From: Escherichia coli
Lineage (GTDB): Bacteria > Pseudomonadota > Gammaproteobacteria > Enterobacterales > Enterobacteriaceae
Strand: one strand, 5' to 3'
NCBI RefSeq assembly: GCF_016026235.1
Contig: NZ_CP065613.1
Length of the DNA stretch: 64,000 bases
Shown here: positions 3,835 to 53,739 of the stretch, piece after piece
Numbering within the stretch: position 1 is the stretch's first letter
Layout: the number at the start of each line of letters is the position of its first letter
Translations under genes and position numbers: made by a program
Notes under the pieces: model-generated
Database searches by the model: none
Seen by the model: only the letters and a program-made list of their open reading frames with translations
What the model was told of the DNA's origin: nothing

Positions 3835-4040
3835 GCAGCCTCCTGCTGTTGCGCAGCACGTAAACGCGCCTCACGCGCCCGCTGTTGCGCCACACCACGC
3901 AGAATTGCGCGATGTTGCATCACCGAGTGCACGACCAAAACAACCAGCGGAATAACGGTCATCACCACCGCCAGCCAGACAAAAAAGGCGTAACCGCCCA
4001 TTGCGAAAAATTCATTCCAGGAAGCAAATGCAGGGGTCAT
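3831..4040 (-). CDS. ccmD: Heme exporter protein CcmD (69 aa)
   Basis: 69-aa small membrane ORF between ccmC and ccmE. Confidence 0.9.
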
Positions 4041-5478: not shown

Positions 5479-6098
5479 GCGGCCCTCGTTTGCGTCAGTG
5501 AAATGCGGCGAATTTTACTTTCAGCAACGTTGAGCGGCTGGTGGGTAGTCAGAATCACAATCCCCCCCTGCTCCGTATGCTGCGCCATACGCTGGGTCAG
5601 ACGATCGACGCCGTTAACGTCAATCGCGGTAAAAGGCTCGTCGAGGATCCATAACGTGGCACGGGTCAGCCACAGACGCGCTAAAGCGACGCGGCGTTGT
5701 TGCCCGGCCGAGAGCTGATTTACAGGAATATCTTCGAATCCGGCAAGCCCGGCCTGCGCCAGGGCTTCCAGACATTGTGCGGTATCGCCATCGCGATGAT
5801 AAAAGTGCAGATTTTCTAACGCCGTCAGCCGGGTTTTGATCCCCGGCTGATGGCCTATCCATAACAGGTTTTGATGGTAGCTGTCGCGTACCTGATGCAA
5901 GGGCTGCCCTTGCCAGAGAACCTCGCCTGCGTCAGGGCGAGACAACCCCGTCAGCAAACGGAGAAGCGTTGTCTTCCCCGCGCCGTTGCTACCGGTGATT
6001 TGTACCCACTCTCCTGCGTTCAGCGTAAATGACAAGCCACTAAATAAGGTTCGTTCATCCCGCTCACAAAGTAACTCTCTGGCTTCAAGCATACCCAC
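5475..6098 (-). CDS. ccmA: Heme exporter ATP-binding protein CcmA (207 aa)
   Basis: Walker [10 protein letters not shown] and ABC signature LSAGQQRR in translation. Confidence 0.92.
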
Positions 6099-6110
6099 GC
6101 AATAACCCTG

Positions 6111-6713
6111 TTAAAAACCTGGCTCGACTTCACGCATATCGGGCAGCTTGTGCGCTATCCCTTTATGGCAATCAATACAGGTTTGCCCATCTTTCACCGC
6201 CTGGTCATGCATCTTCGCGGCAACCGATTTCTGGGCGGTTGTATCCATATACTCGAAGTTGTGACAGTTACGGCACTCCTGCGAGTTATTGTCCTTCATG
6301 CGCCGCCACTCATTCTGTGCCATCGTCAGACGATGAGCTTCAAATTTCTGCGGCGTGTCAATAACGCCAAAAATTTTACCATACAGCTCTTTACTTGCTT
6401 TGAGCTTGCGTATCATCTTCGGCACAAACTCGTGCGGAACGTGACAATCCGGACAGGTCGCACGGACGCCGCTACGGTTGTTGTAGTGCACGGAATCCAT
6501 GTATTCCTGATACACCGTGTTACGCATTTCGTGGCAGCTAATGCAGAACTCTTCGGTATTGGCTTTTTCCATCCCAGTGTTAAAGCCGCCCCAGAAGACG
6601 ATGCCGCCGACAAAACCGATCAACAGCAGCGTCCCCAGCGCCAGACGGCTGGGGGTACGCCACCATTTCCACAGGCGCTTAATCAGACCAGGCTTACGGT
6701 CAGAATTTCCCAT
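6111..6713 (-). CDS. napC: Tetraheme cytochrome c NapC (200 aa)
   Basis: Multiple CxxCH motifs (CISCH, CPDCH, CRNCH, CIDCH); N-terminal anchor. Confidence 0.95.
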   Translation of the reverse strand: MGNSDRKPGLIKRLWKWWRTPSRLALGTLLLIGFVGGIVFWGGFNTGMEKANTEEFCISCHEMRNTVYQEYMDSVHYNNRSGVRATCPDCHVPHEFVPKMIRKLKASKELYGKIFGVIDTPQKFEAHRLTMAQNEWRRMKDNNSQECRNCHNFEYMDTTAQKSVAAKMHDQAVKDGQTCIDCHKGIAHKLPDMREVEPGF

Positions 6714-12847: not shown

Positions 12848-13335
12848 ACTGCCGTGAAGTGCGGCACCCCGTAGGTTGGATAAAGCGGTCACGCCGCATC
12901 CGACATCTAACGCCCGAGCCGGTTGCCTGATGCGACGCTGACGCGTGTTATCAGGCCTACACCGCTGTGAAGTGCTCCACCCCGTAGGTCGGATAAGGCG
13001 GTTACGCCGCATCCGACATCCAACGTCCGAGCCGGTTGCCTGATGCGACGCTGACGCGTCTTATCAGGCCTACACCGCTGTGAAGTGCTCCACCCCGTAG
13101 GTCGAATAAGTCGGTTACGCCGCATCCGACATCTAACACCCGAGCCGGTTGCCTGATGCGACGCTGACGCGTGTTATCAGGCCTACACCGCTGTGAAGTG
13201 CTCCACCCCGTAGGTCGGATAAGGCGGTTACGCCGCATCCGACATCCAACGTCCGAGCCGGTTGCCTGATGCGACGCTGGCGCGTCTTATCAGCATACGC
13301 CACATCCGGCATACCATGCCGGATGTGGCACATCA
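12848..13335. repeat. Tandem REP/BIME array, four units of about 110 bp plus a terminal 14-bp-stem palindrome at about 13299-13329
   Basis: Repeated gccgcatccgacatc...gcctgatgcgacgctg...cttatcaggcctaca units; ORF track shows the same MRRNRLIRPTGWSTSQRCRPD peptide in several overlapping ORFs. Confidence 0.9.
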
Positions 13336-25077: not shown

Positions 25078-28012
<2,935 letters not shown>

Positions 28013-28286
28013 AGGGGCGAAGCTCCGCCTCAGGTGACCGATGGAGTGTGGTTAAGGTAGCGGTAAAAGCGTGTTACCGCAATGTTCTGTCACCATTGCA
28101 ATAATGCGTATCGCTTAGAAACCATTGCCTTAACCAGGAAAGCCGGAGTAAATGGACAGTTCTCAGTACGAAAAATAAGAAATGACCAATCTGCCGACGC
28201 TTGTTAATGGTTATATCCTGGCGTCGGCAGATCGCCCAGCAGTCTTATCTGAAAAAAGAAAGAGCCAGGTTGTGTGAAGGGATGGA

Positions 28287-52314: not shown

Positions 52315-53739
52315 TAATGCCAGTCAGTTAAGCAACTGACTGGCTCTTTTTCGGGGCTGTGGGGTATTTCCAGGGCCTCTCCTTTACCACTCTCGGGAAG
52401 GCCCTTCCCCTTCTCGTCGGTAATTTCACAAGTTGTCCCATACTTGCAAGATCGCGCATCAGCTCCGGTATACGTCCCGGTGAAGCGCCCTGCAATGTCA
52501 TCAGCATTCTCATCACCATTCCGCATGATTCTGAGAAACTCAGTTGATTCGGCCAGTAACCTTTCAGATGTTCCGCCATTTTAATCATCTGATATCTCAC
52601 CAGATTATAAGCCAGTAAGACACCCCACAGCTCTTGCTCCACAAGCTCCGGCTTTTTACTTCTCAGCGTCAGCCTGCTCAGTTGCATCGTCTGTTTTATC
52701 TCCCTGTATCCCAGTTCGATTTCCCAGCGATGACTGTACAGATCCGCCATTTCTCCTCCGGGGAAGCGCATGGCGTCCGTCATCGACGTCAGCAGATGGC
52801 AGACTTTTCCTTTGCGCGTCACGGTCAGCAGGCGGGCTGTCACTTCATTTCCCAGTCCCGGCCACTTTTTTCGTGCCTGCGGGCTGGTTTTCAGCTTCAC
52901 CAGATGATCGCCTTTACCCAGTTTTCTGAGCTCTTCATATTGCGCTCCCTTTCTGAGAGGTATCATCCAGTGGCGGTGTTCTCCCGCCAGGCTCCAGGCA
53001 TTTAACAGTCCCAGTGAGTAATAACCTTTATCCATTAACGTCAGAGTGTTATCGCCGGTTTGTTCTATAAGTTGCTCAGCAAGCTCATTTTCGCTGTTCT
53101 TCATCGTGCCGAAGGCTGCAGCCGTCAGCAGATGGCTGGTCAGTTCCATCTGGCAGACCATTTTGACCTGCGGGTAGAGCGCCGGGTTCCCGGCATGTGT
53201 CTGGCGGGGAAGGCTGCATCGTTCTCTGGTGTATCCGGTGTGCGCCAGAACACACCATCGATGGCCAGCAGGGTCAGGCCGCACCAGTGCGGATGCGGCG
53301 TGGCGTTATGCCAGAGCTGCGCTGTTTTCGTGAACACGCGGCGGACAGCCTCACTTCCCAGGCGCTGGCGGGCCTGAATAACGGCACTGGGGGCAACGAA
53401 GGGGCGATTGCCCGGCAGCATGATGTCCAGGCGATTCACAATCTGGTGAAGAGGTTCTTTACGCTCAAGCGCCATGCCAACAATACACCAGACCATCATT
53501 TCGAGGGGAAGACGGCGCTTGCGTAGCGTTACAGTACCTGATTCGGCAAGGCAACGAGAGATGAGTTCGGGGTCGAGGTAATCCCCCAGAGAAGTCAGTG
53601 GGTTACGCAGAGAATCGTAACGGGATACCAGATCAAGAGCCTGTCCAATGTGCATAAAAAAATCCGGAAACAAGTGAGCGTTTCCGGATTCTTACACAGC
53701 CACTGGATCGGTCAACTGATCCTTAACTGATCGGCATTA
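52315..53739 (-). mobile_element. IS4 (1425 bp) with imperfect terminal inverted repeats taatgccagtcagttaag / cttaactgatcggcatta and 12-bp target duplication caccagcagacc
   Basis: Transposase translation recognisable as IS4 InsG; the duplication sits at 52303-52314 and 53740-53751; ends cross-checked against ORF boundaries. Confidence 0.9.
52328..53673 (-). pseudogene. insG: IS4 transposase split into two overlapping frames (177 aa + 318 aa), apparent frameshift near 53196-53200
   Basis: ORF track shows 53140-53673 and 52328-53284 on the same strand in different frames; together they span a single roughly 442-aa transposase. Confidence 0.7.

Follow-up and report, generated by a model that had tools for sequence, protein, structure and literature searches.

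The 274-bp spacer that separates rcsC from yfaP (28013–28286) in the Escherichia coli DNA studied here, a stretch of 64 kb referred to as the window, is very probably the scar of an old deletion of ~7.2 kb that removed the ato locus, and it corresponds to the common ato-negative allele of the species. The deletion would have taken atoS from about codon 50 onwards, atoC, atoD, atoA, atoE, atoB, and the convergent terminator between atoB and yfaP. What would have been left behind is a 76-bp rcsC-proximal segment, a decayed atoS upstream region with a 5' coding stub, and ~24 nt of filler. The allele would then have been passed on by descent, with homologous recombination in the flanking core genes moving it between genomic backgrounds. 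A carrier strain would be without the AtoS-AtoC two-component system and the AtoDAEB pathway, and would presumably be unable to use acetoacetate and short-chain fatty acids via AtoDAEB unless it had a second ato copy elsewhere.

Both genes that border the spacer are intact and were taken from the list of open reading frames. The rcsC gene (25163–28012, minus strand) starts with a TTG at 28012 and encodes the 949-aa hybrid sensor kinase of the Rcs phosphorelay, and rcsD and rcsB are located upstream of it. Its product is a full-length match to the NCBIfam RcsC equivalog NF008099 (1841.6 bits, with a cut-off of 920) and shares 99.8% amino acid identity with RcsC of K-12. On the other side, yfaP (28287–29063, minus strand, 258 aa) is the last gene of the yfaA-yfaT-yfaS(alpha-2-macroglobulin)-yfaQ-yfaP cluster. 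The amino acid identity of YfaP to its K-12 counterpart is 99.2%, and the Pfam domain YfaP_C has been found on the E. albertii orthologue. In the window, yfaP is now co-directional with rcsC and located upstream of it. Within the same cluster, yfaS (30718–35337) is an intact 1,539-aa ORF; in the K-12 record yfaS is a pseudogene with an internal stop, and in the O157:H7 record yfaQ and yfaS are both pseudogenes.

The spacing of 274 bp, first reported in the initial annotation, is confirmed by the list of open reading frames and by the RefSeq annotation of FDAARGOS_943; being a matter of structure, it leaves no room for chance. This strain is the nearest complete genome to the window (99.9% identity across 20 kb); its rcsC and yfaP CDSs are 274 bp apart as well, and it is 100% identical to the window over 27700–28600. 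In K-12, the interval from the rcsC start to the yfaP stop measures 7,490 bp and contains atoS-atoC-atoD-atoA-atoE-atoB (b2219–b2224). The order rcsC-atoS-atoC-atoD-atoA-atoE-atoB-yfaP, as given in the initial annotation, therefore agrees with the K-12 chromosome annotation, and the comparison with K-12 bears out that the ato block is absent from this position in the window. The two loci share the flanking genes, an identical stretch of 76 bp adjoining the rcsC start, and, as homologous sequence, the region in front of atoS together with atoS codons 23–49, while the K-12 atoSC-atoDAEB locus has ~7.2 kb more, including the six genes and the atoB/yfaP terminator hairpin. The description of rcsC as abutting yfaP directly, with no ORF between them, needs to be amended. 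The gap is indeed short, but it is not a direct junction since the spacer holds an atoS remnant. Likewise, no sizeable gene is present in 28013–28286, although it contains a 41-aa ORF (28082–28207, plus strand) and the first part of an ORF of 77 aa that runs antisense to yfaP; these are the only ORFs in the gap.

Alignment of the spacer to the two K-12 junctions, which had been put forward as a test, gives a clear answer on one side only. On the rcsC-atoS side, the match is exact up to 28088 and the alignment remains colinear beyond this position, whereas on the atoB-yfaP side the last 24 nt have no match. The rcsC-proximal segment (28013–28088) is common to ato-positive and ato-negative alleles. 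It is identical to K-12 at 76/76 positions, to E. whittamii at 73/76, and to E. coli E69 and Escherichia sp. MOD1-EC7003 at 74–75/76. This segment, which includes a hairpin with a 7-bp stem at 28060–28080, presumably comprises the rcsC leader and part of the rcsC control region.

The second segment (28089–28181, plus strand) was delimited in a five-way alignment and consists of the decayed atoS upstream region and the first codons of the gene. Its identity is 56% to K-12 and 84% to the E. whittamii scar, and conserved blocks such as GAAAnCATnnCCTTAACC hold the alignment in register. In place of the ATG with which atoS starts in K-12, the window has ACG (28168–28170). Compared with the K-12 type, the window remnant is short of 11 bp and of 52 bp (atoS codons ~6–22). 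The third segment (28182–28262, plus strand) is a remnant of atoS codons 23–49, reading MTNLPTLVNGYILASADRPAVLSEKRK in the window and MVIVPTLTIGYIVETEGRSAVLSEKEK in K-12. Over 28182–28257 the identity to K-12 is 74% and the alignment is still colinear. A blastn comparison of the gap with K-12 atoS gives 78% identity over 69 nt (E = 1.5e-9), and a tblastn search with AtoS residues 23–49 against the gap gives E = 1.5e-6. The latter value is at least four orders of magnitude ahead of the other K-12 proteins, the best of which reaches an E value of about 0.02.

The remaining ~24 nt before the yfaP stop (28263–28286) are filler that matches nothing in K-12. Comparisons with the K-12 atoB 3' end, the atoB-yfaP spacer, and the terminator hairpin of that spacer gave no match, and homology to K-12 restarts only at the base next to the yfaP stop codon (28286). 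The ~7.2-kb deletion would thus have its right-hand breakpoint somewhere within 28263–28286. As these last 24 nt match nothing, they give no clue to the deletion mechanism, whether based on microhomology or otherwise.

Between its syntenic flanks, the gap therefore retains residual atoS homology that is correctly ordered and oriented. The presence of this remnant indicates that the change was a loss and not that ato had never been held. An alternative in which the window represents an ancestral empty site, with K-12-like strains having gained ato as an inserted island, would account for the sharp allele boundary at 28088/28089, where identity to K-12 drops from 100% to 56%. Salmonella is not known to have ato at the rcsC-yfaP position, which also counts in favor of such an empty site. 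However, the two alleles are still alignable past the 28088/28089 boundary, the K-12 interval contains no annotated integrase, tRNA, or transposase of the kind that would mark an island, and E. albertii, a more distant relative, has the K-12-type sequence. We consider an empty site very unlikely, as it appears to be already contradicted by the correctly ordered and oriented atoS remnant. The chance that the junction is an assembly artefact, arising from a collapsed or mis-joined contig, is negligible given that the identical junction occurs in hundreds of independent complete genomes.

Several properties of the remnant point to pseudogene decay, as opposed to descent from a second functional atoS lineage. 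The start codon has been lost, two internal deletions are present, and conserved residues have been changed. The called AtoS proteins of E. coli, E. albertii, Klebsiella, and Salmonella share the sequence IGYIVETEGRSA(V/I)LSEKEK near the N-terminus. At the residues that are substituted in the remnant, E. coli, E. albertii, and Klebsiella AtoS show no variation, and Salmonella AtoS shows almost none. Changes at such conserved residues argue for decay. The divergence of the remnant from functional atoS is 26–44%, and its E. whittamii copy has acquired an in-frame TAG. Among the E. coli genomes, no intact atoS resembling the remnant was found, and all matches to the scar are either scars (95–100% identity) or ordinary atoS (~79%). 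A protein search for a source lineage with a hybrid AtoS N-terminus gave K-12-type sequences only, none of them closer to the remnant.

Coding capacity and unusual conservation of the remnant were also considered and rejected. A small protein made from the remnant (a 31-aa ORF from 28182) or from the 41-aa ORF at 28082–28207 was discounted because of the in-frame stop in E. whittamii. The similarity of the E. coli and E. whittamii remnants (76/79–81 positions identical) was not taken as a sign of function, as an identity of 96% or more is reached by 19% of all 80-nt windows along the locus. The flat identity profile across the junction also counts against a special conservation of the atoS remnant.

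Among 5,426 complete E. coli genomes, 1,537 (about 28%) have rcsC and yfaP joined contiguously, and 3,878 have the K-12-type rcsC-atoS junction. Together, the two types account for 5,415 genomes; in the other 11, both the native junction and the scar junction are missing in their standard form. A full-length 198-bp scar with at least 95% identity was identified in 1,536 E. coli genomes, which are all the full-length scars found. Across the 198 bp of the scar core, O157:H7 matches the window at 100% identity, and B1 strains, O111:H8 and O91 among them, match it at 99%. O157:H7 and most strains of phylogroups B1 and E are ato-negative and have the same gene order and 274-bp spacer as the window, with nothing of substance different. 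The window flanks are also ~99% identical to those of ato-negative O157:H7 and B1 strains. The distribution of the scar fits the published prevalence of atoA, which is 98% in phylogroup A, 11% in B1, 100% in B2, 100% in C, 67% in D, and 0% in E (PMC9602453). The window junction is the common ato-negative E. coli allele, and the ato presence/absence polymorphism to which it belongs is already documented.

A linkage of the flanking genes to ato status was considered and rejected. Distance matrices of rcsC, yfaP, and yfaQ from three scar-bearing and three ato-positive strains show no grouping by allele. The window yfaP is closest to that of the ato-positive strain 38, and rcsC of O91 differs from rcsC of strain 38 at only 4 nt in 2850. 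As the flanking genes are not grouped by ato status, there is no extended haplotype block. Recombination has uncoupled the ato indel from the genomic background within E. coli.

A tblastn search with the K-12 Ato proteins against the whole 64-kb window returned only paralogous kinase and receiver domain matches inside rcsC. The window has no intact atoS sensor kinase ORF, with only codons ~23–49 being recognisable, and atoC, atoD, atoA, atoE, and atoB are absent from it. The initial annotation had proposed that the strain either lacks ato or carries it elsewhere. This two-way statement is correct, no Ato match being present within the window, and of its two branches an outright lack of ato appears much the likelier. 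Across the complete E. coli genomes, atoDAEB is found in 3,899–3,926, compared with 3,878 native junctions, which means that only about 21–48 genomes have ato away from its native junction. These genomes are explained by copies borne on the LAA pathogenicity island of LEE-negative STEC, module I of which carries atoSC and atoDAEB (PMC9729726, PMC10562709, PMC6174562, PMC13340028). According to these papers, LAA module I has the same six ato genes, but it is part of a mobile island located at tRNA-phe loci and not at rcsC-yfaP, and it is not present in the window.

The existence of this island, together with the 21–48 complete genomes in which atoDAEB is implied to lie off the native junction, makes it conceivable that the present strain also has ato at another locus, for example on a pheV-associated LAA island. 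On the other hand, genomes with ato elsewhere amount to at most about 3% of the scar-bearing ones, and the 64-kb window itself contributes no ato gene. We therefore give a second ato locus only a very small chance. Such a locus would bear on the phenotype only and is compatible with the explanation of the spacer as a deletion scar.

The age of the scar can be approached through other Escherichia species, in which the locus was located by a YfaP scan of one genome per species. In E. whittamii Sa2BVA5 the rcsC-yfaP spacer is 273 bp long and shares with the window the atoS remnant as well as the two internal gaps of 11 bp and 52 bp. The two scars are 87% identical, compared with 84–85% for nearby intergenic DNA and 88–93% for genes, and the identity profile stays level through the junction. 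Since the identity of the scar is indistinguishable from that of the neighboring DNA, the scars of E. whittamii and the window are orthologous, and the allele is old, about as old as the divergence of the two species at this locus. The E. whittamii scar differs from that of the window by a divergence of 13%, the in-frame TAG, one mismatch in the inverted repeat described below, and a last stretch of ~24 nt that is only 50–70% alike.

At the four-fold degenerate sites of the flanking genes, E. coli and E. whittamii differ at 26–41% of positions, whereas the scars differ at only 11–13%. A purely neutral remnant would be expected to have diverged more than this. A scar divergence below that of four-fold sites means either that part of the scar is constrained or that the allele was exchanged after the species split, and both are compatible with the low divergence observed. 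The K-12-type sequence has been found in E. albertii and Escherichia sp. MOD1-EC7003 as well as in E. coli E69, whose ato cluster is complete. Its presence in these Escherichia indicates that, within the genus, having ato is the older condition. In E. coli E69 (CP089930.1), rcsC has only 88% nucleotide identity to that of the window, and the ato genes and yfaP are 97–99% K-12-like, which suggests a mosaic locus with an imported rcsC.

The initial annotation had also called the junction an indel hotspot. For this particular junction the term does not hold, because a single old inherited allele is observed (1,536 scars with at least 95% identity and the E. whittamii copy), but it is right insofar as ato has been lost elsewhere with other breakpoints. 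In E. albertii B156, atoS codons 1–61 are kept and joined to a point about 13–38 nt before the yfaP stop. A 96-aa AtoS stub is located between rcsC and yfaP in B156 (locus positions 5847–6232) and in many other assemblies. The E. albertii type strain (NBRC 107761) has the K-12-type atoB-yfaP spacer, which could be followed to the contig end, and E. albertii thus also appears to be polymorphic for ato. In Escherichia sp. MOD1-EC7003, the 3' end of atoB follows directly on about nt 300 of atoS. In E. coli NT1N28 the stretch from atoD' to 'yfaQ is deleted, and in strain LR-29-1 an IS is inserted in atoE/atoB.

As in the window, the ato block is gone between rcsC and the yfa cluster in E. albertii B156, MOD1-EC7003, and NT1N28. 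In E. albertii and MOD1-EC7003 the left breakpoint is also located in the first ~300 nt of atoS, so that the region upstream of rcsC is preserved. The breakpoints in the three strains are nevertheless unlike those of the window, and their remnants are of the K-12 type and little decayed (93–97% identical to K-12). These comparisons show that ato loss recurs in the genus; the window junction itself is still one inherited allele. A 918-bp public contig from a non-E. coli enterobacterium encodes an in-frame fusion of AtoS(1–~98) to the AtoB C-terminus (…AFPGIG|GGGQGIAMIVERMN). This fusion resembles the MOD1-EC7003 deletion, and both join after the PGIG motif, which may be a sign that deletions have repeatedly joined short, similar Gly-rich motifs in the two genes.

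The separate deletions in NT1N28, MOD1-EC7003, and E. albertii B156, along with the IS insertion in LR-29-1, could be taken to mean that the window junction is itself a recent, strain-specific deletion at a mechanistic indel hotspot. This is extremely unlikely for three reasons. The window scar is common to 1,536 genomes of different lineages and to E. whittamii, the 26–44% divergence of the remnant from functional atoS would have needed a long time, and the genomes with neither standard junction number only 11 of 5,426. An old scar inherited by many lineages remains the preferred explanation.

The atoS remnant of this scar contains a perfect 12-bp inverted repeat (28189–28232), formed by ATCTGCCGACGC (28189–28200) and GCGTCGGCAGAT (28221–28232) with 20 nt between the arms. 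Among 2000 dinucleotide-shuffled versions of the gap, just 2 reached a repeat of this length. Folding of the whole gap as minus-strand RNA gives z = −4.4, and the inverted repeat, as a 13-pair stem, provides much of this signal. By eye, the substitutions relative to K-12 atoS in the five-way alignment cluster in the two repeat arms; in E. whittamii, the repeat has a single arm mismatch. A scan of the gap minus strand for intrinsic terminators, defined by a GC-rich stem, a loop of 3–8 nt, and a U tract within 2 nt of the stem, identified no site. The 28189–28232 hairpin fails this definition because its loop is 20 nt long and the minus-strand U-rich run begins 6 nt past the stem, and this run is not conserved in E. 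whittamii. No Rfam covariance model matched 27800–28500 at E values up to 1. Scans for sigma-70 promoters, covering both the gap and the K-12 spacer, were likewise negative and gave no candidate for the rcsC promoter.

A more far-reaching scenario can be built on the E. whittamii copy and the inverted repeat, although we regard it as rather improbable. The scar would be a trans-species presence/absence allele that predates the split of E. coli and E. whittamii and has been kept beside the ato-positive allele by niche-dependent selection. The inverted repeat would have been built by substitutions in the dead atoS stub and, in place of the deleted terminator, would now end yfa transcripts or insulate rcsC from the yfa operon.

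Other features of the window have been recorded outside the rcsC-yfaP region. An IS1 copy of 768 bp (45135–45902) has an InsA-like ORF (45572–45847), an InsB-like ORF (45150–45653), and a 9-bp target duplication. It is located 32 bp upstream of the intact yfaL/ehaC autotransporter gene (41350–45102). FDAARGOS_943, which is otherwise 99.95% identical, has no IS1 copy here, and in that strain an IS5-family element splits yfaL near window position 44663. An IS4-family element of 1,425 bp (52315–53739), with its transposase split in two overlapping ORFs (52328–53284 and 53140–53673), is also missing from FDAARGOS_943. In the eco-mqo intergenic region (12854–13293), a 113-bp unit composed of REP/BIME-like palindromes is present in 3.9 tandem copies.

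The allele described here is real but ordinary, and it matters little beyond housekeeping. What the analysis adds to the documented polymorphism is modest: a datable scar anatomy, which speaks for loss and not for non-gain, the sharing of the scar with E. whittamii, and the independent ato losses in Escherichia. For the biology of the organism, the allele predicts that acetoacetate, butyrate, and valerate are not used via AtoDAEB and that AtoSC signalling is absent, and the same prediction applies to O157:H7 and most B1 strains. The loss of ato bears on ecology in the gut and rumen, and a statistical link between the ato genes and lactic acid resistance has been reported (PMC9602453). The deletion also puts rcsC directly downstream of the co-directional yfa operon with the original terminator gone. 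As a result, the expression of the Rcs sensor could differ between ato-positive and ato-negative strains.
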